A stretch of 64,000 bases of DNA from a virus (taxonomy: Duplodnaviria > Caudoviricetes), in the IMG/VR virus record IMGVR_UViG_3300020047_009529, positions 2,948 to 66,947 of that record. One strand, given 5' to 3'. Below the pieces are notes generated by a model. That model saw nothing but the letters and a program-made list of their open reading frames with translations, was not told where the DNA came from and did no database searches. The position numbers and the translations under genes were made by a program. Shown here one piece after another: positions 601-48,023 of this stretch; the first letter of the stretch is position 1; every line of letters begins with the position of its first letter.

Positions 601-783
601 ATGTTGTTAATGGTTTGTCTGTTATTAGTGGTTGCTTCTGTACTAATTATTATTGTGGGTACTAATCCACAATTAGTTGGTAAACAGTTAGCAGTTTTAG
701 TCTTAGTAATCCTTGGTCTGTGTGGGGGTGCATTGCATTGCACATCCCAATTGAACCAAGAAGCAAAGGAGCAATACCAATGA
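601..783 (+). CDS. Small two-TM membrane protein
   Basis: GGAG RBS just upstream, ATG at 601, two hydrophobic stretches; stop overlaps the next ATG (ATGA coupling). Confidence 0.6.
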   Translation: MLLMVCLLLVVASVLIIIVGTNPQLVGKQLAVLVLVILGLCGGALHCTSQLNQEAKEQYQ

Positions 784-1583
784 TTGATTCATTTAAAGGG
801 CAGTATGCTTGGCTCAGTAATATGGCTTTGTTAGATGAACCTATCAATGATGGGATCACTACCTATGTGTCAGTAGAAAATTACTACCAAGCACATAAAG
901 CAAGTGAAAAGTATTGGCCTGACCAAGTTGATCTTACCCCACAAGAAAGTAAAAAGTGGGGTAAACACTTACCACTCAGGCATGACTGGAATCAAATAAA
1001 AAATGATGTAATGTGGGAAGCATTACAACATAAATTCGGTCAGAAGAAATTTCAAGCATTGTTATTGACTACTGATACTCAAGAATTAGTAGAAGGTAAT
1101 TGGTGGAATGATACCTATTGGGGTGTATGTAAAGGCGTTGGTAAAAATATACTTGGTAAAATGTTGATGCAAATCCGTGAAGGACTGCAAGAACATAAGG
1201 ACATTAATATAAATACTAAATTTAATAAAGATCAAAGTAAGGCAGACATTGCTGATGCATATATTGGTATTGGGGCAATTGGTAGCAGTACCGAAATGTA
1301 TGCACAATACTTTGATAAAGTAAATTCAAAAGAATATGTGCCTTATGAAATTGTATTTGTGAGCATTAATGGTAAACGACCTAATTCAGTAGGTATATCA
1401 CAGTATATAAAGTTATTAGATGCTGCTGTACAACAGCGAGTTGTATTCTGTAGTGATAACCCAAGTAATCGCAATCGTGATTACAACACAGGTGAACGTC
1501 ATTTAGCAGAGTACTACACCCATAATGGCTATACAGAGTATGTGTGTAAACACTACTCACTATGGCTACCACCAACCCATTGA
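780..1583 (+). CDS. NADAR-family (YbiA-like) ADP-ribosyl/N-glycosidase fused to an unnamed C-terminal domain
   Basis: F.G.Y.WLSN, SVENYYQAHK, DW..IK.DVM.EAL..KF, LVEGNWWNDTYWG, GKNILGKMLMQIRE are NADAR hallmarks. Likely start ATG 780 after AAAGGA. Extra ~130 aa C-terminal domain. Confidence 0.9.
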   Translation: MIDSFKGQYAWLSNMALLDEPINDGITTYVSVENYYQAHKASEKYWPDQVDLTPQESKKWGKHLPLRHDWNQIKNDVMWEALQHKFGQKKFQALLLTTDTQELVEGNWWNDTYWGVCKGVGKNILGKMLMQIREGLQEHKDININTKFNKDQSKADIADAYIGIGAIGSSTEMYAQYFDKVNSKEYVPYEIVFVSINGKRPNSVGISQYIKLLDAAVQQRVVFCSDNPSNRNRDYNTGERHLAEYYTHNGYTEYVCKHYSLWLPPTH

Positions 1584-4213: not shown

Positions 4214-4253
4214 AGGCTTATGCCGTCATTGAACCAAGCAAAGGAGCTTGATC

Positions 4254-9541: not shown

Positions 9542-10741
9542 ATGTATCCAATTCTGAAAGGTTTAACGCCTATTGACTTGGCTCAAGAGCCTACTTTAGA
9601 GAAGGCTGTATATCAATCTCGACGGGATTTGATGACCAATTCTAAAACCAAGTTTTATGGGATTGTCTTACTTCAGTTGCCTATGTTTGTCGTTAAAGAG
9701 AACATTACAGGTGCAACAGATGGTACAGGTATTATTCTAGGTCGTGATTATTTCATGGCTCAGAATACTTCACAGCGTAAAGAGCTTATTATTCATGAAG
9801 TCATTCATGTCTGTATGAAGCACTCTATGCGGCTTAAAGGGCGTAATCCTCGTGTGTGGAATGTAGCTTGTGACTATGCAATCAATCCCCACTCTGAACA
9901 GCTTGGCTTACAGCTCAGTGAAGGAGCAATCAAAGACCCTAAGTATGCTGATATGAGTGCTGAAGCTATCTATGATGACATCATGGCTAATGGTGGTGAA
10001 TCTATTTTACCTCCAATGGGTAATGGTGCTGATATGCATTTAATGCCATCACCTGATGCAGATAGTAAGCTATCCAATGGTCTTTTACCTGAACAGGCCA
10101 TTGATCAAGCTATGCAGACAGCAGTCATACAAATGGATATGAGTGGTCAAGGTAGCTCAGTCCCAGGCTATGTAAGGGAGTGGCTTAAAGAGTTGTTTGA
10201 ACCAAAGGTGTCATGGCAAGCTTTGTTGCGTAAGTACATGAATGCTAAGAGTCAGACTGAATATGATATGAGTCGTCCTAATCGCCGTATGCGGCATCTA
10301 GGGATTTATCTACCTACCCGTAAGGGTAAGAAGATGGGTAAAATGATTCAAGCATTTGATCTTTCTGGTTCGATCAGCAAGCATGAATTTCTGCACTTTG
10401 TCAGTGAGTCGTATGCAGGGTTCAAAATTCTCAATCCTGAATTGCTTGAGATCATTCAATTTGATACTGACATTATCAGTATTGATAAAGTCACTAAAGA
10501 ATCTGATTTCAACAAAATTCAATTCAAAGGCGGTGGTGGAACAGACCTAAGAACCTTGTTTGATCATTTTATTAAAACTAGAGCAAAACTTATGATTGTA
10601 CTCACTGATGGGTATTTTTATAACAACTTTGCTGTACCACCAAGAGGACAAGATGTTATTTGGTGTATCTACAATAATCCAAGTTGGAGACCGCCATTTG
10701 GTAAAGTAGTACATCTGTCATTTGATAAAGCCCAATCTTAG
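9542..10741 (+). CDS. Metallopeptidase-like + vWA domain protein (N4 gp25-like)
   Basis: IIHEVIHVCMKH (HExxH), WNVACDYAIN, MIDAS-like AFDLSGSIS, GGGGTD, IVLTDG. Confidence 0.88.
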   Translation: MYPILKGLTPIDLAQEPTLEKAVYQSRRDLMTNSKTKFYGIVLLQLPMFVVKENITGATDGTGIILGRDYFMAQNTSQRKELIIHEVIHVCMKHSMRLKGRNPRVWNVACDYAINPHSEQLGLQLSEGAIKDPKYADMSAEAIYDDIMANGGESILPPMGNGADMHLMPSPDADSKLSNGLLPEQAIDQAMQTAVIQMDMSGQGSSVPGYVREWLKELFEPKVSWQALLRKYMNAKSQTEYDMSRPNRRMRHLGIYLPTRKGKKMGKMIQAFDLSGSISKHEFLHFVSESYAGFKILNPELLEIIQFDTDIISIDKVTKESDFNKIQFKGGGGTDLRTLFDHFIKTRAKLMIVLTDGYFYNNFAVPPRGQDVIWCIYNNPSWRPPFGKVVHLSFDKAQS

Positions 10742-15553: not shown

Positions 15554-15577
15554 ACATTGAACCAAGGGGAGATGTCT

Positions 15578-16767: not shown

Positions 16768-16999
16768 AGCTCGTATTAAGGCTAAGCGGCAACATGCCAA
16801 GCAATCATCTACTGCTTGGCTTATACATCACAAAGTCCCATTCACGTCTTTCAATGAGGGGACTCATCTTATGATTCCTTTCAACACACTCATGATCCAC
16901 TACTACCCTTCTACAGGTTTGTTTATCTACAATGGTAAGCGTGATCGTGGTATTCGTAATCTACTTTGGCTATTAGGAATCAAACATGATCACCATTGA
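16751..16999 (+). CDS. Hypothetical basic protein
   Basis: Intact ORF overlapping neighbours; IHYYPSTG...RGIRNLL. Confidence 0.7.
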   Translation: MNQVSKARIKAKRQHAKQSSTAWLIHHKVPFTSFNEGTHLMIPFNTLMIHYYPSTGLFIYNGKRDRGIRNLLWLLGIKHDHH

Positions 17000-17444
17000 A
17001 AAATCTATCCTTGATGTTAAGAAGGGTATTGTACTCCAACAGGTAAACTGTAAAGGAGTGATGGGTGCAGGGTTAGCATTGCAATTTGCAAACATGTATC
17101 CAAAAGTATTACCCAATTACCTTAAATACCTTGAAGTGACTTCTAAACCATTAGGTACAGCTAAAGGTATAAAACTTACTGACGATTTACTCATGTTAAT
17201 GGTATTTGGTCAAAATGCTTATGGCACTGAGCAACGTCATACAAACTATGAAGCAGTTATTGCTGCTTTGGTTCAATTCCAGAAATACCTGAAAGACAAT
17301 CCCAATTCAGAAGTCTTTGTACCTTATGGTATGGGATGTGGATTAGGCGGCGGTAACTGGAAAGTCATGCAAGAACTCATCCGTGAGTATCTTGATCCTC
17401 ATTGCAAACTAACAATCTGTAAGGTGACTCAAAAATGTCAGTAA
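16986..17444 (+). CDS. Macro domain (ADP-ribose binding/hydrolysis; phage A1pp/Tk.4-type)
   Basis: QQVNCKGVMGAGLALQF and VPYGMGCGLGGGNW signatures. Confidence 0.9.
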   Translation: MITIEKSILDVKKGIVLQQVNCKGVMGAGLALQFANMYPKVLPNYLKYLEVTSKPLGTAKGIKLTDDLLMLMVFGQNAYGTEQRHTNYEAVIAALVQFQKYLKDNPNSEVFVPYGMGCGLGGGNWKVMQELIREYLDPHCKLTICKVTQKCQ

Positions 17445-18241: not shown

Positions 18242-18943
18242 ATGTTTCCAATCAATCAACTTGTACCAATGGGTAGTGTACTCGCACTACCTAACAAAGT
18301 AGTTACACGTCTGCGTTCTACTGGTTCAGGGGTAAGTGAATCAAACAAGTTTACTACCATTTTACGTGGTGTAAATTGCAGTTATACTGAATCCCTGTTT
18401 GCTGCTGAAATTAAAAATGAGTTGTGTTCAATTGATCGCAAATTTGCTGAAATTGATTACAACTATCGTCAATTGCTGCCTTACGTAGTTTTTGTTTGTA
18501 CAACTACTCGACGTGTATTGAATTACAAACGTGGTAAAGCAGGTAGTGAATCTCGCTTGCATGATCTACGTTCTGTTGGCTTTGGTGGGCATATTGATAG
18601 TCAATTAGACTATTACAGTGAAGCACATTACCGCTACCAATTTGATAAACTCATTTTTGACAATATCAAACGTGAAGTTCAAGAAGAATTGGGATGGGAT
18701 ACTATTGAACCAAGTATCAAACAATTTGAGGGCTTACTCATTAGCAACAACCCTGATCCAAAAGAGGTAGGTCACTATCATTTGGGTATGTTGTTTATCA
18801 TCCAAGTTGATAGCCGCTTTGCTATTCAACCTGAAGTAGGTAATGTTGAGTTGCCTGAATGGGTATCTATTGGTGAGTTGGATCAACTCAATCTTGAGCC
18901 TTGGTCACATGCAGTCAAACCTGTGCTTAACAAATACCTTTAA
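18242..18943 (+). CDS. Nudix (MutT-like) hydrolase, COG4112-type
   Basis: GFGGHID...KREVQEELG split Nudix box, HLG, LEPWS. Confidence 0.82.
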   Translation: MFPINQLVPMGSVLALPNKVVTRLRSTGSGVSESNKFTTILRGVNCSYTESLFAAEIKNELCSIDRKFAEIDYNYRQLLPYVVFVCTTTRRVLNYKRGKAGSESRLHDLRSVGFGGHIDSQLDYYSEAHYRYQFDKLIFDNIKREVQEELGWDTIEPSIKQFEGLLISNNPDPKEVGHYHLGMLFIIQVDSRFAIQPEVGNVELPEWVSIGELDQLNLEPWSHAVKPVLNKYL

Positions 18944-35876: not shown

Positions 35877-38800
35877 TTAGAAGCCTAACAACATTTTAAT
35901 TGGGAAAGGCTCTATAGCTGCTGAAGGTACACCAAGAATTGATGGAGTAAATGGATTACCAATACCACCCAACATACTTGCATCAAGAGCACCTACATAA
36001 TTACCTGAAGCTGCAAGGAATGTTTGAGCCAAAGAAGTAGTAGGATAATTCTTCAATAGATAGAACATAGCTCGTTGAATACGGATGTAGTACTTAGTAA
36101 ACATCACTAAACCCATATCATTGAGATACTGTAATTGCGGTGACGTAGGTACATCATACGCAATAAACAGTTTATCTGCTAAACGAATACCCTCCTCATG
36201 AGTCCCTCCTTCACGTAAGGTTACTTGCTTATACGCAACATACTTAGCCATAAAGTCACTAAATTGTGTGGCATTGGATAAGAATTCGTATGCAGGTGTA
36301 CCTGGTGCCACTACAGCCCATTTAGCGGCTGTCTTAACTCCTTTAGGAATAAAGGCTGTCTTTTGGTCTATTGCATCTGCAAACTTAGTTGTGTATGCAT
36401 ACTCATCTTGACCACTATCCAAATCCTCAACAATCGTAGGCAACATCCCTGCTGCAATAAACTCTTTCAATGGATTACGATTCAGCGAATCATTTACCCG
36501 ATTAAGCTCATTACGAATTTCAGTTGGATTACCAACACCTACAAGTAAGTTCTGTTCAAGACTGACTTTACGGCTCATATCTTTACGGTATTGAGTACCT
36601 GCACGTAAAGCTTCAATACTATCTTCAACAATACTCTTAGGATTAATACCACGAGCCATGAGAATAGACATATTGTTTGTTTGGTTTCCTAACAATGTAC
36701 TGATGTTACGAATAACAATTACGTTTTTAACCACAGCCATAATGTCTTGAATAGCTTGTTCAGCTTTCATGGCTTTAGCTTTAGGATTATTACGCAATAA
36801 TACATTCACCATTTGTACAGTAAAGTTTTCAACTGTATTCCGCAAATCAGGGTCTTTATCAAACATGTTACCAATAGTCAGTTTCTGAAAACCAAACACA
36901 GGACGTAACAAATCAGTACGGATCATCAATGGTGTCTCACCATACAAACCATTTACGTATGCCTTAGTTTTATCAGGTAACAACTTATACAATTCAGCAA
37001 CTCTTGGATCATCTGAATTAGGACTTACTTCAGTAAACTTATGACGTTGTCTATCCCCATAAGCTGCCCAATCTTTATGAATCATATCAAACACAGCTTT
37101 ATTGTGTGTTGGTGTATGACTCTTATCGAAGATACCCCCTTTGTATGTACCTAAGAGAGTAGCAAAGTCATTGTTACGCTCAAGCACACTTGAATCACGT
37201 ACAGCATGGGACATCTCATAGCGATAGTCCATAATAGAACCATCATTGCGATATACAGGAATCACACTTGATGTTTCCATCCTTGGATCATAGCTGTCTG
37301 CTTTAGCGGCCTTAGCTGCTAAGCCTTTACGCATACGAGAAGCAGCTAATTGGTGAGCTACAGCCAAGCCTTTAGGGGTAAGATCATCTTTATTACCTTT
37401 AAAGATTGAAGTACCTTTACGGGCTGTATTCGTGATACTGACTGCTGCTGTAACGAACCGTTGACGTACACTTACATCAGTGGCATACATTGCACGCACA
37501 TCACCTGTAAATGGATCATTCTTGTCCATCTTCAAATCAGCTACTTTCTTAAACCCTAAGCGAATCAAATCAGCTTCTTCTTCTTTAGAAGTAGCAATTG
37601 AAATCTCTTTATGTCGGTTAGTAATTTCAGGTAAATAACCATCAATCATGTTTGTAGTGCTTGATTGGAATAAGGTATCTTTCGATTCCTTAATCATTGA
37701 GCCATGATACTGAAGTACAGTACTCATAGCACTTTGGTTACTCTCAAGTAGTTTTACGATTAATTGACGTTGAGATTGATCCATGTACCTAATTGCATGA
37801 AATGCTGCATACTGATCAATCAAATTCACAACATCTTTAGCTGCAACATCATAGTAGTTCTCCAAACCTACATTACGTGCAATAGCATCACTGTTTTTAG
37901 CAAGAGCTGTACGGCCTTCACCTTTAATTTGATATATTGCTAAGTCTTTAGCACGTACTTTATACACCTCACTATCTTCATATTGATTTAACTCTTTAGT
38001 TAATTCAGCAATAGCTTTGTCAACAACAGCATTAGATTTGAAAGCTTCAGTAATACCTTTAATACCAATATGCTTTAACATGACTTGCATGTTAGTACGC
38101 AACATACCTGCACTAATTGCATTACGTTCCTCTTTAGTCAACTTGTTATCAAACAAACTTAACAAGTCAGATTTAGTAACGTCAATTAAACGCTTACGAT
38201 GTTGCTGCAATACGTTGTGCTTACGAATTAAATCGTACACAGCTTCACGCATTGTACTTGGTTCAGCAAACTCAGAGAGTAATTCAGCAGCCATACCATA
38301 AGGTTTACCAGAATGCCAAAAGTCTCTCCAATCCTGCATAACTCGCATGTCTTCCATGAAGTTACCACGGAGAATACTTTGAACTACTTTAGTACTTCCA
38401 CGTACACTACCGCGCTTAGACTTAGCCATCCCATTAAGTAAGTCTGCACCTTTCTTACCAAACAATTGACCATAAGCATTACTTACTGCTTGTGCAGAGC
38501 TGATCCGATCAAGCACCTGATTAATTAAACCATCTTTACGTTGGTTCTTAATCTCAATAAGCTGCTTAGCAAGAATAGGTAATTTACCACTTGCAGTATC
38601 AGTACGAAGTGTACGGGTCAAATAACCATTAACCCAATTCATAATTGAGTTGATAAATGATGTCAGCTTTTCATAGTAAGATTTTTTAGTACTGCTACGC
38701 TCCCGTGTACTTACTACAGTATCCATAAGCTCACGCACTTCTTTTGAACCAAGCGAAGCAGCAATGAACTTAGACATGTAGTCACTACGACCGTTAGATG

Positions 38801-41800
38801 CATTACCTTCAAACAGTGCATTGTACTTGGCATTAGCTAGGGACTTATCGTCTTCAGTAGCTGTAGACCAATCACCTTTATAGAAGTCTTCAGGCTTGAG
38901 AGTCTTACGAGCATCCTCATAGACTTTGAGCATCTCACGATATACAGGAGTGTTAAAGCCACCATCTAAAGCTGCCTTGATACTGACCTCAAGGGACTCA
39001 ATCACAAATCGCTCTTGAGCTGTCAGGTTAAATCCTACACGACCAAGGCTACTGCTATAAGGTGCTTTACCCTCAGTGACTAAGCTTTCCCATACTTGGA
39101 ATGGTGTGTACTGATTAGTGTCATATCCTTGGATCAGGCTGTATGCCCCTTGTACTGCACTATTAAACACTTCTTTCAAATGACTGTTGAAATCATTATC
39201 AGATGTTGTGTTCAGGCTATCAAAGATGTCAGAAACACTATAGCTATCTACCTCATCCACTGCTGAGAACAATAAATCCTGCTGTCTAGGTTTAGCAGTA
39301 ATATTCTGATTCACTGCCATCAGAGAGGTACCATTGTAAATCAAAGAAGCCAATGCTGTGTTATCACTTGGCTTAATACCTAAGTAATTCACAATACTAT
39401 CAATAAGCATTTGGAATATTGACTTAGCTTCAAAACGTCGATTAGTAACCTTGGTAACAGGCACTTGCATCAACACTTCTTGGAATACTTTGGAGCTAAA
39501 TCCTACCGCTACGAACTCCTCTAAATTAGTCAAAGCGTATTCAATGATAGCTTTTTGCTTATCATTAAATGTGTTCTTGTTTTTTTCATAGAAGTCTCTA
39601 GTAGCTTCCATAGTTTGAGTTAATTCTTTAATTAAGGCTTTAGCTTTAGCATCTTTAGACTTAATGGCAAGAACCGTCAATGCATGTACGTACTCATGCA
39701 AGATTAAACCACTATTGGCTCTATCAGCTCTAACTACAATTACATCTTCGCCATTACTGTTGTAAGTATGAAGACCACTGTATTTACCATTTTGCAATTG
39801 ACTAATATCTACATCAAGATCGTTACTTGCAGTATTAGCATCTACCACATATACCTTAATATTTTTGCCCAATCCTTTATTGATTAGGGCAACTAAGCTT
39901 AGTTGTATAGAAACACCATTTGTTGCTTTAACTTGCTTAGCTAACTCAGGCAACAAATCACCAAGAGTAATAAAACTACCAAGTGCATCAGTCAACTTTT
40001 TAGTAAAACTGTTCTGTAGTATTACAGGCTTTGTAGTAGGTTCAGCTTGTACTACAGGTTTAGTAGGTTCAGCTTGTACTACAGGTTTAGTAGGTTCAGC
40101 TTGTACTACAGGTTTAGTAGGTTCAGCTTGTACTACAGACTCATTTACTTTAATTTCCTCAGTAGGTTTAGTAGATGTATCCTGTTTTACAGGTTTATCA
40201 CTAAATTTATTTTTATTGTATTTAGCATCTTTTAGTTCCTCTTTTAAGTACTGTGGAATAATGGAATCTACTAAGTCTAAATACTTTTGACGTTTGATTT
40301 CTAATTTATCAATTTCTTTAAGCAACAGGCTACGGTCTGCATTAGTCAAAGCATACTGACCCCCTTCAGTACCGTACTGATTGACGTGCTTAACCTTAGT
40401 AAGATTACGAAGCTTAGCAATATCATCATTAAAAGCATTATTGACAACTATCTTCAAAGCTTCAGCAGTTGAGTAAGATTCTAATTCCAATGACGGAAAG
40501 AACCCCTTTTCTGTTTTAGTAAGTGTATAAAGTGCGTTATACAGAATAGTATTGCGATCTTTTTCACTAAACAGGTTACTTTCAAACATACCTTTCAATG
40601 GTGCAAAGAACGCATTCAAGGATTCACTTGCTAAGTGATAACGAGATTGCACTGTAGTGAATGCCTGATTCTGGATAGTAGCCATCTTCACTACTCCAGT
40701 AACAGATGAACCATTAGCATCATGGTGGTTGGTTGCAGCTACACTACTCGAAGTAGTAGCAGTCACAAAAGCATCCATTGATTGAATTAAAATAGCACTA
40801 ATACCAACACCTTTTGACTCAATCACACGCTTAGTCACAGGTGTATTGTACGTCTTACGAGTACCCAACATAGGTGCTTTAGCAAACACATGATTAGATG
40901 AATACTCGTAATATTTGTCACGCTTAAAGTTGTAAGTACGGTGTGATGCTTCTGTAGCATTCTTACCATTAAACACACTGTTAGCACTACGAATCGTAGA
41001 GTCATAAGGTAATAGCCGACTAACAACTTCAGCTTCCATTGCATCGCTCATTGGTTCAAGCTGTACATAAGACATCTCACCATCTTGCTTCATATAACGT
41101 GTTGGAATATTCAACTCATTTTCTGCTTCAACTACTTTATACATTGCTTCATACAATGCACCAAATAATTCAGCACCTACATTCGCTAAGGTAGTGACTT
41201 GCTTACGGCTATCAATCAAGTCACCTGCTACTCTTTGCAAAGCAAACATAGTAGCTTTACCACGTAACTTACCATCTAATTTAGCAACACCTTTTACAAC
41301 GGCTTTTGGAAACTCACTATCTAACAATTCTTCTTTAGTTGCATTAACTAAATTAAATCTAGCAAGTTGTGTACGATTTGCAATATTAATGAGGTCTACT
41401 AATATATTTAGATTATCCTCAATAGTTTTCATACCTTCAGGATTGTTGATGTTGTCTTCAACAGCCTTATAAATCATATTAATCAAGTTATATGAAATAG
41501 CCCGATTAATTGAACCAAAAGAAGAACCATAGACGAAAGGTGTAGTTGCTACTTTAGCTCCTTTACGACTACCAAAATTCTTATCAAAATAGTTTGTAAT
41601 TGCAGCAAACTGTTCAACAACAACCCTTAGGTAATTATCTTTATCTGCTGCAATACTAGAGATTAGATCACTCCATATTTCTTTTTGAGCTTCACCAATC
41701 TGCTGATAAACATCTTTACCGCCTTTGGCTCGATAGCCTACGTTAGTGACTGTATCAGTATCAAAACCATATAAGCCACCTGCTTCAAGTAGATTGGTGC

Positions 41801-44800
41801 TATACGCTCCATAAGCTACAACAGAAATGATAAGGCCATTGGTCACACCGTCAGACTCATAGGCTAATGAGGTAGTGAGCTGTGTTCCTGCTGCTTTAGC
41901 ATCAAAGTAATCTACAAGGCTATCCAAGGCCATGACACTTAGCCCTGCCATACCAAACTCACTTACTGCTTCTTGGATTGCATTCAGGTCTGCTAAGCCA
42001 CCATTACGCATCTCACGCATGGCTTCTACACCTTTAGCCACTACAGGACTTGTATTGATGTATTCCAAGAATGATGGGATATACAAACCTGCTGTAGTCT
42101 TATCATGTGTGGTGTTAATAGTGAGTGGTGCTTCCTCCATGTTTGCCCCTAGAGCAAGTAAGTAGTAGCCAAAGGGTGTAATAGTGCCATCTGCATTGAA
42201 TGGGGAATCTATGTCAATAGTGACCGTATGCTCTTTAAGACCAATCATAGAGCGACTAATCTTATCAGCCTGTTCATTTAAAACAGTGGCATCAATACCA
42301 ATACGGTTTACTTCCCATACCTTCATAGGCATGTACATATCAGGGTAGGTATCCCCTTCAATTGAGCCAAGGAAATCAAGGTTATTGTTGATACTGCGGA
42401 TGATCCCCTCATTGATAGCCTGTTGCTCTAAACGGGTACTAATGTGCTTATTTGCAAGCTCCTCAATAGGCACATACCCTAAAAGTCTTAGCAATGCATC
42501 GTGGTTCAAAGCACTCATAGTCTGATAGAAGTTGACCATATTAGTATTAACTGAGTATGGCTTGGCTTGCATACGCTTAACTTTTTGAGCCAAATCAAGA
42601 GGAATCTCAGTACCAGTACTGCTAATGGTCTTTTGACTCAACCCTTTGATTGGTTCAAATGAAGGATACCGTAACTCATTCTCAGTACCAAATAATGAGT
42701 TCATCAAACCTTGAGTGCCACGAGTAACATCCATTACACGTTTTACAAATTTATTTGGTTCATTATTTTCCCAAATAGGTCTTGCAAGGTAAACACGGTA
42801 AGCTGAGTTATTAGCAATTAGGGGGTCTTTCTCTGCTTCCTGCTCTGATGCATCAGAGATCATATTAGCAAATTCTCTAAATTCATCTAATGCATAAGAA
42901 GTCTCCTCAAGTAAATTACCGTCAAGCATAAGTACGTAAGCAATAGTACCTAACGCACTTTGCAATTTATCTTTACGAGTTGAGCTTAAACCTTTATCAA
43001 GTTTAAACCCTAAAGACTTGTATGCACGCTCACCTAAACTTTGAATAATTTGGTTAGTGAATTGACCTGCATCAGTAAACTCTTTGAATACTTCAAGCGG
43101 AACAATAGCAGTTTCTTTAAAACCAAATAGTGCTGCTACTTGTTCCATGTTGCGATAACGCTTACCACCATTCTCAGCTACCCAACTAAACATAGAAGCT
43201 GTAATAGCAGTCTTGATGTTTTCATCAATAGTACCATCAGGATTAATCAAGTATTGAATCCAATCCTGATATTTGAATTTACTATCAGCACCTTTATTAC
43301 GAATAAAAGATGCAATCTTTTTACTATGTAGTTCATTAAACTTACTGAATGCAACCAAAGCATCTTCCTGTTTAGGCGTTAATGCACCTAAAATACTTGC
43401 AGCATTTGTCAACAAGTCTTCTTTGAGCCAAGACATGAAGTCTTTATTAGCTGCAAGAAAAGTAGACTTAACTTGTTTGAAGCTTGCAACTAACAAGTTT
43501 GCTTTTTGATAACCCGTCGATTCAGTACGATTATCTTCTTCAGATAAAGCACGTTCAAACTCTTTATCACCCTGCATGGCAGTAAGGCCATCAACTACAT
43601 CTTCAATTACTGGATCAACCGATTCAGAAGTAGATTCTACAATAGTTGTACTCTCACTATCTGTTGCAATAGTCTCAGGATCAGTATTCAGGTTTGCAGT
43701 ACCTACATCTTGATCATTTACATCCTCTTCTACAGGAATTTCTACAGTACCTGTAGAAGGATCATTAACTACGTATGTCCATTCAGCATGTAGACCACTA
43801 GGATTTTTTACGTAACCCTTAGAGTATAGATACTCTGCTAAATCTTTCTCACCTGTATTAAACGATGTAATAAGAAAGTCAGTAATAAATACTGCTTTTG
43901 CTGCAATAGCTTTATCTAACTCAGGTTTAATCGCTTCAAGTTTAACAGCATCTTTTCGATTACCATTAATGGATACGAATACTTTCTCCCCTTCAGTATA
44001 TGTACCTTTATTAGCTAAATCACCATACTGATCTTCATAGTAAGCAGTACTGCTATTAGGAGCACCTTTACCAATAAAAGAGTCTGCTGCATTAATTTTA
44101 GATAATTCTTTTCTCCGTGTATCACTGCTAATATTTCCTTTTGTAATAATAATTGGCTTATCGTTCCCTACTTCAGTTTTATCTGTTACAGGGGTAGTCA
44201 CTTCATTACTTAATTCAATATCTTCTGCCTTTGGTTCAGCTTTAGTATCAAGTGAGCTTAGTGTTTTAGCATAAACATCTTTGATAGCTTGTTTAGCTGC
44301 ATTAGCAATCTCATCACCAACGTATTGTTTTCTTGGTTCAAACTTACCTGTTAGTTGGTTTTTAGTATTGTAATTTTCAATATCTCTAGTACCAATACCA
44401 GCAAATTCTTTAGTTAAAGTAGGTGTAGTAGTAGCTTGGAATACACCCTTAGCTCTATTAAATTCGTACCATCTTTGAGTATTAGTATCCCAAACATAAA
44501 CAGGACGAACCTTGTCAGTTAGTTTGATAGCTAATTGGATAGCAGTATTAGTACCACCAGTAACACCTTTTTTATTGGGCGTTAGTGAACCAATAGCAAA
44601 TACACCATCAGAATTAGCTACTTGATAATAATTACGTGCTTGTAAGTTACCAGCAATATCATCCTTATGGTTAGTACCAAGTAGACTATTAACGGTATCT
44701 CTAGCTTTATTTAATGCAGCAGCAGTAAGGATAACTGCTTTAACACCAGCATCTTTAAGCTTTTTAGATAGGTTACTATTATTCTCATCTCGATAGTGAT

Positions 44801-47800
44801 TATGGTTAGTAACACCAAATTCACGACCAACAGTATCCCACATGGTATCTGCACCATAAGCACCGCCAGAATGGTTGGTATAACCCTGTAATGCTAATTC
44901 AGCTTTAGTTTCTGTAGCTGCTTCTGGCTTTACATCAGCTTTAGTTTCTTCTTTACTTGGTTCAACTTGCGATAGATAAGCTTCATTCAGTGCTAGGATA
45001 AACCAGTTCTCACCTCCAGTTTCCCATACAGTGTTCTTTGAAGTTGGTTGGTGTGTAGCTGCCAATATCCACTTAGAACCACCCTGCTTAGTAATTCCAA
45101 CTACTAATGCAGGGTACTGTTTTAATTTAGCTTTAAGAATAGCAACCATGAGTCTGTAATTATTACTAACCTCTCTAGCAGGTTTAGTTCTACTTTCTGT
45201 AGGATGTTTAATTGCTTGAAAAACTGCTTCAGCATCTTTATAAGTTTTACCACCAAATTCTATTGGATAAGACTCTGTAATATTACCCTTTGATTTAGCC
45301 AATTCAGTAGGATTAGTAAGAGCAGCAGCCAAACCTTTTGCATTAGAACTGATTTCTGTAGTAGCTAACTCAATATCTTCTGCTTTTGGTTCAGCCGCTT
45401 TAGCTGCGCGTTCAGCTTCTTTCTTAGCTTTATCTGCTTGGTATTGATTACGGATAATACGATCTAAGTTGTTGTAGTCATCAAGGGCAGATTGAAAGTC
45501 TTCAGTAACTGTTACTTCTTCAGGTTTAACTGAATTAAAATAATCAACAGTTTTACCAATAGATTCAACTTCAGTACCTATACGCTGAATAAGATTACCA
45601 CTGCCTTTATGAATTAACATACCACCATTTTCAACTAGGCCGTTTACATCAGCACTTGTTTGGTAGTTACCCGCTTCTGCAAGTACCCACTCATTACCTG
45701 ATTTCCAAACAGGAATAGCCAAACCTGTTGGTACTTTTGCAAATGCTTCTTTAGCTGCTTTATGTTTTTTGATATGTGAATCTTGAAATGAAGTAAGTTG
45801 AGTATACAAACGATTTAATACATTTGTATTACCTGAGTTCTGAGCAGTGTTCCACTCTTTCACATATTCTTTCAAACCTCGAAAGTTTTTTACATCAGAC
45901 TTAGAGCCAGTAGTAATATCACCTGTTACTAAATCCAAATCTTTAGATGAATTCAAAGCAACAATAGCTTCTGAAAACTTACGTAGATTATTACGTTGAT
46001 CATCAGTTAATCCATTAGTCAAATCATCAACTACTGAATTAATCTTAGATACGTTTTCTGGCAATGGCTCTAACTCAATAGTAGCATCATAAGTTGAATA
46101 ATTTGCTTTATTATGCACCTTATTCAATCGACTAAATTGACTCTGCAAATCTTCTTGAGTTGCCTTAGCTTTATCTAAAGAAGCTAAATAAACTTCAGGT
46201 GTAGCTTCTTTAACAATATTATAAGAAGCTGTCATTGCTGCATTAGCTTTAGTAATTAAATCTGTGTAAAGCTCTTTGGATTCATCACTCAATTCAGGGT
46301 TAGCAAGAATTTCTTCAAGCTTTGCTTCATTACGTGTTACTGCCCCATTAACCACTTTTTCATATTGAGCATAGGTTGCTGTTTGAGCATCAAGTAAGTC
46401 CTGTGCATCATTTACAGTCTGACGTGCATCATTGAAGACTTGATCTTTATCTTCTTGGTTCTCAGCTTGTGAGTAAGCAAAGACATATCGTTTAACCGCT
46501 TCAGATGGGTTATACGACTTAGATTGAGGATTAACTAAGTCTGCTACATCAGTAGTAGTGTCTGTAGGTGCTTCAGGGTTAATAGCAGGTTTACCTGTAA
46601 ATTCATTAGCAATAGCCCCAGGTGTACCAACTACCCCACCTGACAATCCCCCAAGAGCTGCACCAATACCAACATCAACAGGGTTATCAAAGCCACCCAA
46701 CGAACCTAGACCACCCTCAATTGCTGACTGCCAGCCTTCCGCAAATGTTTCAGCTCCTGTAGGTGCAGCAATACGCCCTGTTGAGCCAAGGATAGAAGTA
46801 GCCATCTGTAGGGGTGTTTTAGCTACTGCTTCTGTAGATTTAGTAGCTATTCCCAGTGGGGTAGTTACAAGTTTATCACCTACAAAGTTTAACCCTGCGT
46901 ATGCCAAGTCATACAAAGCCATATCTGCTTTTTCTTGCTGTGTAGGTAAACGTCCTTCACGAGCTGTAAACTGAGCCGTAGACTTGGCTGCTTGATCAGT
47001 CAATGAAGATACTGCACCTATAAAGGGTGCTAAAAAGTAAGGTAAAGACTCAGCAATAGTTGTAGGCACAGTAGTCAAATTATTAGTAGCGTTATCAAAC
47101 GCACTCATAAATGCATTGCCTAATTTTGCTGTATCTGATTTTGCATTGATAACATTAGGATCACCTGCAACATTCTCTTGCAAGTTTTGCATATTTCGTT
47201 GGTTATACCATTCTTTAGTATTTAAAGCATTTGGTGTTTTACCATCAGCTTCATACCCCCGTTCTTTTAATACTGCTTCACGGATAGCTTGAGCATTATC
47301 TAAATCTTCACGAAATGTATTTCCTGTTTTTGGATTACGAGTATTTACCAATGATATCTCCCAATTATCAATTTGGGCATAAGATGTCCAAATTTCAAAC
47401 ATCGTCTGTTCACGTAATAATTCTTCGTCATTAGGTTTTTTTGCTAATTCAATTTTAAATTTTTCATAATCACGTGCTAGTGAAAGTCTCGATTGATTTT
47501 TATGTAAAATGTTTGAATACGCTTCTTTAACCCGATCAGGTACAGTGGATTCAATCATAGCTGCATCTACTGTATCTGGAATTGTTTTAATATTCCGATA
47601 AATGTTGTTTGCAGTAGCAGCTACAGCTAATGACATGTTTGCTAAGTTAGCTGGAACACTAATCAAAGGATTAGTACTTTCTAATTGAGCTGTATTAACA
47701 ATTGGATGATCTTTATCTAAGTTATCGTACTTTTTATTTGCTTCAAGATTAGCTACTTCTTGGCGTGCTACTTCGGCAATAGTACGTGGATCAGTACCAC

Positions 47801-48023
47801 CACCATTCTTGACATGTTCTGCTACACTACGGCCTTTGACAGCTTGTTGTTCTTGTGGTGCATAGCTCACCAAAGGACTTGCAGCTTCTTGTGTTGGTTC
47901 AGGTGTTAGTACTTGTCGTTGTGGTGCTTGGGCAATAGTCGATAGCAATGCTTGAGCCATATCATTAGGATTCAAGACTGTACCATCAGGGAGGGTGTAA
48001 GATTGAAGGATCGTATTGGACAT
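35877..48023 (-). CDS. Virion-encapsidated RNA polymerase (N4 gp50-like), 4048 aa, with inserted NADAR-like, SLOG-like and unnamed domains
   Basis: Giant ORF with no Cys seen in the translation; motifs YESDGVTNG (A), RKGAKVATTPFVYGS (B), QSMDA...HHDA (C); position between the RuvC-like gene and the ejection genes. Confidence 0.95.
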   Translation of the reverse strand: MSNTILQSYTLPDGTVLNPNDMAQALLSTIAQAPQRQVLTPEPTQEAASPLVSYAPQEQQAVKGRSVAEHVKNGGGTDPRTIAEVARQEVANLEANKKYDNLDKDHPIVNTAQLESTNPLISVPANLANMSLAVAATANNIYRNIKTIPDTVDAAMIESTVPDRVKEAYSNILHKNQSRLSLARDYEKFKIELAKKPNDEELLREQTMFEIWTSYAQIDNWEISLVNTRNPKTGNTFREDLDNAQAIREAVLKERGYEADGKTPNALNTKEWYNQRNMQNLQENVAGDPNVINAKSDTAKLGNAFMSAFDNATNNLTTVPTTIAESLPYFLAPFIGAVSSLTDQAAKSTAQFTAREGRLPTQQEKADMALYDLAYAGLNFVGDKLVTTPLGIATKSTEAVAKTPLQMATSILGSTGRIAAPTGAETFAEGWQSAIEGGLGSLGGFDNPVDVGIGAALGGLSGGVVGTPGAIANEFTGKPAINPEAPTDTTTDVADLVNPQSKSYNPSEAVKRYVFAYSQAENQEDKDQVFNDARQTVNDAQDLLDAQTATYAQYEKVVNGAVTRNEAKLEEILANPELSDESKELYTDLITKANAAMTASYNIVKEATPEVYLASLDKAKATQEDLQSQFSRLNKVHNKANYSTYDATIELEPLPENVSKINSVVDDLTNGLTDDQRNNLRKFSEAIVALNSSKDLDLVTGDITTGSKSDVKNFRGLKEYVKEWNTAQNSGNTNVLNRLYTQLTSFQDSHIKKHKAAKEAFAKVPTGLAIPVWKSGNEWVLAEAGNYQTSADVNGLVENGGMLIHKGSGNLIQRIGTEVESIGKTVDYFNSVKPEEVTVTEDFQSALDDYNNLDRIIRNQYQADKAKKEAERAAKAAEPKAEDIELATTEISSNAKGLAAALTNPTELAKSKGNITESYPIEFGGKTYKDAEAVFQAIKHPTESRTKPAREVSNNYRLMVAILKAKLKQYPALVVGITKQGGSKWILAATHQPTSKNTVWETGGENWFILALNEAYLSQVEPSKEETKADVKPEAATETKAELALQGYTNHSGGAYGADTMWDTVGREFGVTNHNHYRDENNSNLSKKLKDAGVKAVILTAAALNKARDTVNSLLGTNHKDDIAGNLQARNYYQVANSDGVFAIGSLTPNKKGVTGGTNTAIQLAIKLTDKVRPVYVWDTNTQRWYEFNRAKGVFQATTTPTLTKEFAGIGTRDIENYNTKNQLTGKFEPRKQYVGDEIANAAKQAIKDVYAKTLSSLDTKAEPKAEDIELSNEVTTPVTDKTEVGNDKPIIITKGNISSDTRRKELSKINAADSFIGKGAPNSSTAYYEDQYGDLANKGTYTEGEKVFVSINGNRKDAVKLEAIKPELDKAIAAKAVFITDFLITSFNTGEKDLAEYLYSKGYVKNPSGLHAEWTYVVNDPSTGTVEIPVEEDVNDQDVGTANLNTDPETIATDSESTTIVESTSESVDPVIEDVVDGLTAMQGDKEFERALSEEDNRTESTGYQKANLLVASFKQVKSTFLAANKDFMSWLKEDLLTNAASILGALTPKQEDALVAFSKFNELHSKKIASFIRNKGADSKFKYQDWIQYLINPDGTIDENIKTAITASMFSWVAENGGKRYRNMEQVAALFGFKETAIVPLEVFKEFTDAGQFTNQIIQSLGERAYKSLGFKLDKGLSSTRKDKLQSALGTIAYVLMLDGNLLEETSYALDEFREFANMISDASEQEAEKDPLIANNSAYRVYLARPIWENNEPNKFVKRVMDVTRGTQGLMNSLFGTENELRYPSFEPIKGLSQKTISSTGTEIPLDLAQKVKRMQAKPYSVNTNMVNFYQTMSALNHDALLRLLGYVPIEELANKHISTRLEQQAINEGIIRSINNNLDFLGSIEGDTYPDMYMPMKVWEVNRIGIDATVLNEQADKISRSMIGLKEHTVTIDIDSPFNADGTITPFGYYLLALGANMEEAPLTINTTHDKTTAGLYIPSFLEYINTSPVVAKGVEAMREMRNGGLADLNAIQEAVSEFGMAGLSVMALDSLVDYFDAKAAGTQLTTSLAYESDGVTNGLIISVVAYGAYSTNLLEAGGLYGFDTDTVTNVGYRAKGGKDVYQQIGEAQKEIWSDLISSIAADKDNYLRVVVEQFAAITNYFDKNFGSRKGAKVATTPFVYGSSFGSINRAISYNLINMIYKAVEDNINNPEGMKTIEDNLNILVDLINIANRTQLARFNLVNATKEELLDSEFPKAVVKGVAKLDGKLRGKATMFALQRVAGDLIDSRKQVTTLANVGAELFGALYEAMYKVVEAENELNIPTRYMKQDGEMSYVQLEPMSDAMEAEVVSRLLPYDSTIRSANSVFNGKNATEASHRTYNFKRDKYYEYSSNHVFAKAPMLGTRKTYNTPVTKRVIESKGVGISAILIQSMDAFVTATTSSSVAATNHHDANGSSVTGVVKMATIQNQAFTTVQSRYHLASESLNAFFAPLKGMFESNLFSEKDRNTILYNALYTLTKTEKGFFPSLELESYSTAEALKIVVNNAFNDDIAKLRNLTKVKHVNQYGTEGGQYALTNADRSLLLKEIDKLEIKRQKYLDLVDSIIPQYLKEELKDAKYNKNKFSDKPVKQDTSTKPTEEIKVNESVVQAEPTKPVVQAEPTKPVVQAEPTKPVVQAEPTTKPVILQNSFTKKLTDALGSFITLGDLLPELAKQVKATNGVSIQLSLVALINKGLGKNIKVYVVDANTASNDLDVDISQLQNGKYSGLHTYNSNGEDVIVVRADRANSGLILHEYVHALTVLAIKSKDAKAKALIKELTQTMEATRDFYEKNKNTFNDKQKAIIEYALTNLEEFVAVGFSSKVFQEVLMQVPVTKVTNRRFEAKSIFQMLIDSIVNYLGIKPSDNTALASLIYNGTSLMAVNQNITAKPRQQDLLFSAVDEVDSYSVSDIFDSLNTTSDNDFNSHLKEVFNSAVQGAYSLIQGYDTNQYTPFQVWESLVTEGKAPYSSSLGRVGFNLTAQERFVIESLEVSIKAALDGGFNTPVYREMLKVYEDARKTLKPEDFYKGDWSTATEDDKSLANAKYNALFEGNASNGRSDYMSKFIAASLGSKEVRELMDTVVSTRERSSTKKSYYEKLTSFINSIMNWVNGYLTRTLRTDTASGKLPILAKQLIEIKNQRKDGLINQVLDRISSAQAVSNAYGQLFGKKGADLLNGMAKSKRGSVRGSTKVVQSILRGNFMEDMRVMQDWRDFWHSGKPYGMAAELLSEFAEPSTMREAVYDLIRKHNVLQQHRKRLIDVTKSDLLSLFDNKLTKEERNAISAGMLRTNMQVMLKHIGIKGITEAFKSNAVVDKAIAELTKELNQYEDSEVYKVRAKDLAIYQIKGEGRTALAKNSDAIARNVGLENYYDVAAKDVVNLIDQYAAFHAIRYMDQSQRQLIVKLLESNQSAMSTVLQYHGSMIKESKDTLFQSSTTNMIDGYLPEITNRHKEISIATSKEEEADLIRLGFKKVADLKMDKNDPFTGDVRAMYATDVSVRQRFVTAAVSITNTARKGTSIFKGNKDDLTPKGLAVAHQLAASRMRKGLAAKAAKADSYDPRMETSSVIPVYRNDGSIMDYRYEMSHAVRDSSVLERNNDFATLLGTYKGGIFDKSHTPTHNKAVFDMIHKDWAAYGDRQRHKFTEVSPNSDDPRVAELYKLLPDKTKAYVNGLYGETPLMIRTDLLRPVFGFQKLTIGNMFDKDPDLRNTVENFTVQMVNVLLRNNPKAKAMKAEQAIQDIMAVVKNVIVIRNISTLLGNQTNNMSILMARGINPKSIVEDSIEALRAGTQYRKDMSRKVSLEQNLLVGVGNPTEIRNELNRVNDSLNRNPLKEFIAAGMLPTIVEDLDSGQDEYAYTTKFADAIDQKTAFIPKGVKTAAKWAVVAPGTPAYEFLSNATQFSDFMAKYVAYKQVTLREGGTHEEGIRLADKLFIAYDVPTSPQLQYLNDMGLVMFTKYYIRIQRAMFYLLKNYPTTSLAQTFLAASGNYVGALDASMLGGIGNPFTPSILGVPSAAIEPFPIKMLLGF
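40037..40137 (-). repeat. 27-bp coding tandem repeat (VVQAEPTKP x~4) in the vRNAP hinge
   Basis: Unit GTACTACAGGTTTAGTAGGTTCAGCTT repeated near-identically. Confidence 0.9.
44211..45395 (-). repeat. Pair of 30-bp direct repeats (AEPKAEDIEL) at 44211-44240 and 45366-45395
   Basis: 28 of 30 bases identical by eye. Confidence 0.9.

Follow-up and report, generated by a model that had tools for sequence, protein, structure and literature searches.

An unnamed domain present twice in an N4-like phage, behind NADAR in a putative early protein and within the virion RNA polymerase

A domain of about 120 residues, for which the working name DOM is used here, occurs twice in the genome of an N4-like phage, once directly behind a NADAR domain in a small protein and once inside the virion RNA polymerase (vRNAP). 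The window analysed, to which all coordinates refer, comprises 64,000 nt (positions 2,948-66,947) of the virus record IMGVR_UViG_3300020047_009529, which is 66,947 bp long in full. DOM represents a separate domain, as yet without a name, that phages and other mobile elements carry, and both of its forms in this phage look intact.

Two copies of one domain

The first copy is encoded by an open reading frame at 780-1583 (plus strand) for a protein of 267 amino acids (aa; P0001). ATG 780 was preferred as the start codon because of a canonical Shine-Dalgarno sequence (AAGGAG) 8 nt ahead of it, and GTG 720 was discarded. Residues 1-144 (780-1211, plus strand) constitute a bona fide NADAR domain, with residues 9-136 matching Pfam PF08719 at E 3.8e-21 (76.5 bits, against a curated cut-off of 35.1) and a match of this half of the protein to phrog_1017 at E 1.1e-34. 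Catalytic Glu and Lys residues seven positions apart are found throughout the NADAR superfamily, as E88 and K95 in the E. coli C7 NADAR (PMC11543638), and the corresponding Glu-x6-Lys pair is present in P0001 as E33 and K40, within VENYYQAHK. DOM follows directly as residues 145-267, which together with the stop codon occupy 1212-1583 (plus strand); it was recognised by BLASTP, by the family profile and in the AlphaFold2 model.

The second copy lies in the vRNAP gene (35877-48023, minus strand), an open reading frame for a polyvalent protein of 4048 aa (P0002) with a weak match to PF21867 (vRNAP_dom_2). A BLASTP comparison of the 267-aa and 4048-aa proteins aligned residues 150-262 of P0001 with vRNAP residues 1305-1415 (45 of 114 identities, 39%, four gaps; E 8e-17), far beyond chance, and all the remaining segments shared by the two proteins had E values of at least 0.027. 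This core corresponds to 43779-44111 on the minus strand and falls within 43770-44160, where a preliminary description of this DNA had placed a second occurrence of the domain; the entire copy covers residues 1297-1420 (43764-44135, minus strand). The claim that the same domain occurs twice was thus borne out, and the motifs on which it had been based (IGxG..SST, VFVSING.R, the Asp ending the third strand, NTGE..LAEY and GY) are all present. A 39-sequence family profile, run over the full 66,947-bp record, placed DOM at exactly these two sites (E 3.3e-47 for the early copy and 7.5e-39 for the vRNAP copy), both of them free of stop codons.

Across 288 family members 29 positions are conserved in at least 90% of the sequences, 26 of which are retained by the early copy and 25 by the vRNAP copy. 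The latter has lost Arg231 to a three-residue deletion and carries the substitutions D151E, D190E (a position that is also Glu in the early copy) and Y235F. Both copies were recovered within one nine-leaf clade (support 0.87) of the 288-leaf tree, a placement that duplication or exchange in the lineage of this phage could explain.

DOM is the third of three modules that precede the polymerase core in the vRNAP, and the SLOG/DprA-like module lies just upstream of it. The preliminary description had each copy share a polypeptide with a NADAR-type domain, which holds without reservation for the early protein and in part for the vRNAP, where Pfam gave no match to module 1 (residues ~905-1010; 44994-45311, minus strand) even at E<=10. 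This module is probably a divergent NADAR: hhalign against a 20-sequence NADAR alignment gave a probability of 90% (E 1.5e-6) over only 64 columns, and 88.6% with a smaller alignment, and the Glu-x6-Lys pair is retained as E932 and K939 in DAEAVFQAIK; hmmsearch with an in-house NADAR hidden Markov model (HMM) gave E 0.25. Module 2 (residues ~1030-1246; 44286-44936, minus strand) matches phrog_768, annotated as "DprA-like", at E 2e-14 and contains the glycine-rich motif GGAYGAD. Pfam was silent on module 2, so no clade within SLOG was assigned to it; its homologues adjoin DOM in three family members (P0033, P0150 and P0067).

Delivery of the vRNAP copy by injection and early expression of the NADAR-DOM gene had both been proposed in the preliminary description, and they now have as their basis homology with N4 for the former and gene position for the latter. 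DOM-carrying relatives match the N4 vRNAP domains of Pfam with E values down to 5e-53, and the vRNAP copy would enter the cell with the injected polymerase. The gene for RNAPII (PF00940; 4248-5477) lies 2.7 kb downstream of the NADAR-DOM gene on the same strand, and genes for a helicase and a DNA polymerase A also follow on that strand. This gene order is the early/middle layout of N4, so "early" is used for the NADAR-DOM gene in a positional sense.

According to PMC5512222, a metallopeptidase is invariably fused to vRNAPs of the N4 type and may divide polyvalent proteins into functional pieces. The zincin motif HEYVH at vRNAP residue 2776 would fit such a metallopeptidase. Two occurrences of the peptide AEPKAEDIEL, at vRNAP residues 877 and 1262 (45366-45395 and 44211-44240), bracket modules 1 and 2, and DOM starts about 35 residues past the second occurrence; this placement suggests separate insertion histories for the NADAR-like/SLOG pair and for DOM.

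Family, predicted fold and conserved positions

When 1.84 billion metagenomic cluster representatives (50% identity) were searched exhaustively with HMMER and a profile of four sequences, 718 matched at E<=1e-3, 473 of them at E<=1e-10; a second search yielded 320 stand-alone clusters (90% identity) of 64-259 aa at E<=1e-5. Among 287 sampled members, 149 do not exceed 160 aa, 57 have 161-1000 aa and 81 are longer than 1000 aa. Stand-alone proteins of about 125 aa represent about half of the sample, and the rest lie mostly within larger multidomain proteins, giant polyvalent proteins or virion proteins. One stand-alone copy (L014, 6001-6399) was found on a contig judged bacterial because records of it reach 2.2 Mb; the neighbours of this copy are genes for a Dcm-type DNA methylase on one side and for an ArdC-N/MPTase-PolyVal antirestriction protein on the other. 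From this context within a bacterial island it follows that conjugative or integrative elements also carry DOM.

The domain had been described as unnamed, and no model of Pfam, PHROGs or NCBIfam touched it, with single sequences at E<=10 or with 39 members searched singly at E<=5, in agreement with that description; in the source databases the members are annotated solely as "hypothetical protein". A tblastn search of 50,697 GenBank phage records with three members detected Vibrio phages Kuja, SUMAE and VPALA as the only cultured carriers, a rarity that accounts for the absence of the family from PHROGs. A word-based search for homologues, made with the domain on its own, yielded three close relatives only, a pattern scan of viral contigs for DOM found none, and the ESM Atlas contained no usable match.

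AlphaFold2, supplied with a 39-sequence alignment, modelled DOM with a pLDDT of 94 and a pTM of 0.88. The elements follow in the order helix, strand, helix, strand, helix, strand, short helix, helix and beta hairpin (also given as a-b-a-b-a-b-a-b-b), and the predicted fold is compact and Rossmann-like alpha/beta. The 29 conserved positions are mostly Gly, Ser, Thr, Asp, Asn, Glu, Lys, Arg and Tyr at strand ends and helix starts, and include, in the numbering of the early protein, K150, D151, K154, I162, G163, G165, S169, S170, T171, Y174, N182 and Y186, followed by S195, G198, R200, D226, R231, N236, G238, E239, Y251 and W262. They make up recognisable motifs, namely a K-D-x-x-K N-terminal helix, a glycine-rich loop IGxG...SST, VFVS-x-G-x-R, a strand-end Asp and R-x-R-x-Y-N-x-G-E. 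In the model the conserved positions map to the N-terminal helix and to the loops or helix starts after strands 1, 2 and 3, and loops after strands are the usual ligand site in Rossmann-like proteins; the loops after strands 1-3 are predicted to form a pocket.

Sequence searches of the Protein Data Bank (PDB) with profiles of four and of 39 sequences produced no match below E 0.19, and Foldseek gave nothing at E<=1e-3 against the PDB or BFVD, the top BFVD match being a "MptE-like" phage protein (E 5e-3, TM 0.45). Against class I S-adenosylmethionine (SAM) methyltransferases, the NagD-type HAD cap and flavodoxin-like Rossmannoids, DOM scored within the range of unrelated proteins, and the defining motifs of the methyltransferases and of HAD are absent from it. 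It is very improbable that DOM is a cut-down relative of the class I methyltransferases that binds or consumes SAM and so disarms SAM-dependent host defences: the model has five strands versus seven, strand 2 ends in the invariant Ser195 and has no acidic ribose-binding residue, and no methyltransferase Pfam match was obtained in 39 members. Membership of the HAD superfamily (NagD, subfamily IIA) was rejected, strand 1 ending in F-I-G-x-G without DxD and the sequence matches being insignificant (E 0.07-1.6). Kinship with SLOG was also rejected, on an hhalign probability of 0.2% against a SLOG alignment. The loop I-G-x-G-x-x-x-S-S-T has no Lys and does not correspond to the Walker A pattern GxxxxGK[ST] of P-loop NTPases; its position behind strand 1 of a Rossmann-like fold makes it plausible to read it as a phosphate loop of the general Rossmann type.

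Fusion partners and proposed function

Searching for NADAR with an HMM built from Pfam-validated members identified this domain as the commonest recognisable partner of DOM (20 of the 139 multidomain members). In 16 of these 20 cases the gap between the two domains is shorter than 50 residues, usually 0-16, with 13 proteins in the order NADAR-DOM and three in the order DOM-NADAR. On a FastTree phylogeny of the 120-residue domain the fusions appear among solo and giant members, at some ten places; the tree is weakly resolved, and its scatter is therefore taken solely as evidence that the fusion arose more than once. Structure prediction of a complex of the NADAR half (residues 1-143) with DOM gave scores of 0.00 and 0.11, below the mark, which are evidence neither way.

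Pfam domains detected in 39 mid-size members were NADAR (2), NADAR-DarT1 (1), DUF4326 (2), cpYpsA SLOG (1), Macro (1) and a weak prenyltransferase (1), with nothing else found, and 14 giant members contained N4 vRNAP domains (3), LPD3, PBECR1, SprT-like, VanY and weak NADAR (2) matches. The giant carriers are polyvalent effector proteins in the sense of PMC5512222. A length-shifted search added more NADAR fusions, AlkB-type dioxygenases (3), a PIF1 helicase and the N-terminal part of T7-like RNA polymerases (2). Composite architectures were also recovered, with the orders DOM-SLOG-DUF4326-NADAR (P0033), SLOG-NADAR-DOM (P0067), SLOG-DOM (P0150) and DOM-AlkB-NADAR (P0169). The association of the domain with NADAR, SLOG and Macro, anticipated in the preliminary description, is thus supported by fusions, often of directly adjacent domains; it is neither exclusive nor obligatory, about half of the members standing alone and other partners occurring as well.

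Macro, NADAR, SLOG, Nudix and DUF4326 domains co-occur in phages, where they have been proposed to divide the labour on ADP-ribose (ADPr) derivatives (PMC9503650, PMC7824862). ADPr attached to guanine in DNA is hydrolysed off by NADAR (PMC11543638), and AdfN, a phage NADAR, overcomes DarTG1 (PMC11257639). Our general reading, which we judge to be evenly balanced between right and wrong, is that DOM processes or binds a phosphate-bearing, nucleotide-type substrate alongside NADAR early in infection. The substrate would be bound through the IGxG..SST loop, S195/R200 and R231, and D226/E239, perhaps with K150/K154, would process it. DOM would act during the opening minutes of infection, alongside enzymes that remove base adducts or degrade ADPr derivatives and above all alongside NADAR; most likely it would process or hold the ADPr moiety, or ADP-ribosylated nucleic acid, either ahead of or following cleavage of the ribose-base bond by NADAR. 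This phage would then deliver it twice, as injected vRNAP cargo in a NADAR-like/SLOG/DOM cassette and as a newly made early NADAR-DOM protein. Points in favour of the general reading include the pocket-like conservation, the repeated close fusion to NADAR, the place of the NADAR-DOM gene ahead of that for RNAPII and the setting of the stand-alone copies, which head rightward blocks of small early genes, beside packaging or structural genes; on an N4-like contig of 71.5 kb one of them lies upstream of the RNAPII gene. Any particular chemistry is distinctly doubtful.

Several observations weigh against this reading. Only one of nine stand-alone contexts has an ADPr-type neighbour (DUF4326, three genes away), and members without a partner make up about half of the sample, so the link to NADAR is facultative. 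In Vibrio phages Kuja (L004, 3959-4369; 136 aa) and SUMAE (L010, 4992-5396) DOM directly precedes nrdA-nrdB, an adjacency that hints at nucleotide metabolism and may represent a single inherited arrangement. NrdI, the flavodoxin-like partner of ribonucleotide reductase, was considered for this adjacency and dropped, no NrdI or flavodoxin Pfam match having been obtained in any member. To these points are added the loss from the vRNAP copy of Arg231, which is 95% conserved in the family, and the outcome of the fold search, which yielded generic Rossmann-like matches only and hence no functional support from structure.

The AlkB, PIF1 and RNA polymerase fusions fit a role directed at nucleic acids at least as well as one on small-molecule ADPr. 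DOM might accordingly be a module that binds nucleic acid (probably single-stranded DNA or RNA) or recognises lesions in it, possibly a repair enzyme, which recruits its partners to the polymer and for which ADPr is not the ligand. AlkB directly adjoins DOM in P0175, P0169 and P0162, the PIF1 helicase in P0172 and an RNAPII-type N-terminal subunit in P0155 and P0156; moreover, the proven substrate of NADAR is ADP-ribosylated DNA (PMC11543638), and many of the conserved residues are basic or aromatic (K150, K154, R200, R231, R233, Y174, Y186, Y251 and W262). However, the invariant Ser, Asp, Asn and Glu at the strand ends resemble a catalytic or small-ligand site rather than a polymer surface, the fusions to SLOG, DUF4326 and Macro indicate soluble ADPr derivatives (per PMC9503650), and no known nucleic-acid-binding fold was matched. 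We consider this explanation rather unlikely.

The stand-alone members also bear on an explanation that we regard as improbable, in which DOM is a non-catalytic sponge or sensor, like Tad1, Tad2 and Acb2, that sequesters an immune signalling nucleotide (e.g. a cyclic ADPr isomer) and is occasionally fused to degraders of related molecules. In its commonest form, as an early protein of about 125 aa that stands alone, the domain has the size and position typical of known sponges; pocket-like conservation would fit, and phage SLOG domains within these same architectures have been proposed to act as sensors (PMC9503650). In contrast, a single copy in injected proteins of 2000-5000 aa would amount to few molecules per cell, poorly suited to stoichiometric sequestration, the conserved Asp, Glu and Lys pair look catalytic, and no similarity to the sponge families known in Pfam was found.

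Within the general reading of a domain acting on a phosphate-bearing substrate beside NADAR, a more specific version can be put forward tentatively, as possible and still on the unlikely side: the DOM family may be a novel group of enzymes, providing a step so far missing from the reversal of ADP-ribosylation on nucleic acids or from the destruction of immune molecules derived from ADPr. Such a step could be, for example, the trimming or cleavage of a phosphoribosyl or ADPr moiety that NADAR, Macro or SLOG cannot handle. If this were true, a widespread anti-defence activity, represented by more than 700 sequence clusters, would be delivered both by injection and by early expression.

Phage counter-defence against immunity based on NAD and ADPr (DarTG, Thoeris and related systems) is actively studied, and its enzyme repertoire is incomplete. 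DOM is numerous, strongly conserved, enzyme-like, almost invisible in cultured phages and repeatedly found beside NADAR. The family is real, large, unannotated and testable, with an ordinary fold and a function that we infer; the 125-aa soluble protein, or the 267-aa NADAR-DOM protein, is a concrete and cheap target that could reveal a new activity. DOM could also explain the differing in vivo specificity of some NADARs, a question left open in PMC11125620, and its presence in one phage as putative injected cargo and as an early gene illustrates how N4-type virion polymerases may serve as carriers of anti-defence modules.

Genomic setting and relation to known systems

The 10-mer TTGAACCAAG occurs 22 times genome-wide on both strands, against 0.2 expected, for example at 751-760, 1580-1589, 4229-4238, 15557-15566, 44332-44341 (minus strand) and 44956-44965 (minus strand). 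It is often located 19-51 nt before a same-strand start codon, including those of the NADAR-DOM and RNAPII genes, and the vRNAP gene contains two copies on its coding strand; the 10-mer probably serves this phage as a promoter or regulatory word. Direct repeats of 16 nt flank the NADAR-DOM gene (747-762 and 1576-1591), and their interpretation as cassette scars was rejected because their core is this 10-mer, found 22 times and often ahead of genes. A second word, ACACAGTAA(C/G)TA, is present twice in the intergenic stretch that precedes the NADAR-DOM gene (519-537 and 565-583), each copy inside a short inverted repeat (e.g. GGATTAC...GTAATCC at 560-580), and the two are candidate N4-type hairpin early promoters.

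Megablast of the first 6 kb of the window found no match among GenBank phages. A protein of 399 aa encoded at 9542-10741, between the RNAPII genes and those for an SF1 helicase and DNA polymerase A, matches the putative metallopeptidase domain DUF2201_N (E 2.9e-26) and the VWA-like DUF2201 (E 2.3e-20). At 16986-17444 and 18242-18943 no Pfam family was matched at E<=1e-3, and the assignment of these genes as Macro and Nudix was left unconfirmed.

The rhodanese-phosphatase-like domain DUF4326 (PF14216) of the phage NAD/ADPr networks (PMC9503650, PMC7824862) resembles DOM in being small, without a known chemistry, and repeatedly fused to NADAR, SLOG or Macro and to replication or DNA enzymes. The two share polypeptides in P0008, P0009, P0033, P0155 and P0265, a co-occurrence rather than a replacement, but they show no sequence relationship (hhalign probability 0.2%), and DUF4326 is in Pfam whereas DOM is not.

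DOM also resembles the large polyvalent-protein-associated domains LPD1-40 (Iyer et al. 2017; PMC5512222), seven of which were called "potentially enzymatic" in that work, and its architectures, as read from sequence, agree with the definition of this class. It is found inside giant virion or conjugative polyvalent proteins together with LPD3, PBECR1, SprT-like/zincin, VanY and N4 vRNAP modules, 81 of the 287 sampled members being longer than 1000 aa, and it exists as solo early genes as well. The LPD models that Pfam includes all fail to match DOM, and NADAR and SLOG are absent from the text of PMC5512222; DOM may already be catalogued under an LPD number, for example LPD19 or LPD21, the comparison having covered the LPDs with Pfam models.

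A NADAR-fused domain of this kind is not mentioned in PMC9503650 or in the NADAR papers. A further parallel is with the phage NADAR counter-defence proteins (T4 gp30.3/AdfN) and the DarG1-type NADAR antitoxins, with which the early protein shares a NADAR half bearing the Glu-x6-Lys pair and, in this phage, the early position proposed for phage NADARs (PMC9503650, PMC11257639). It differs from them in that NADAR is here fused to DOM, and a second, probably divergent, NADAR-like module is embedded in the virion polymerase. We would place DOM with the phage counter-defence domains, injected or expressed early, that belong to the NAD/ADPr network.
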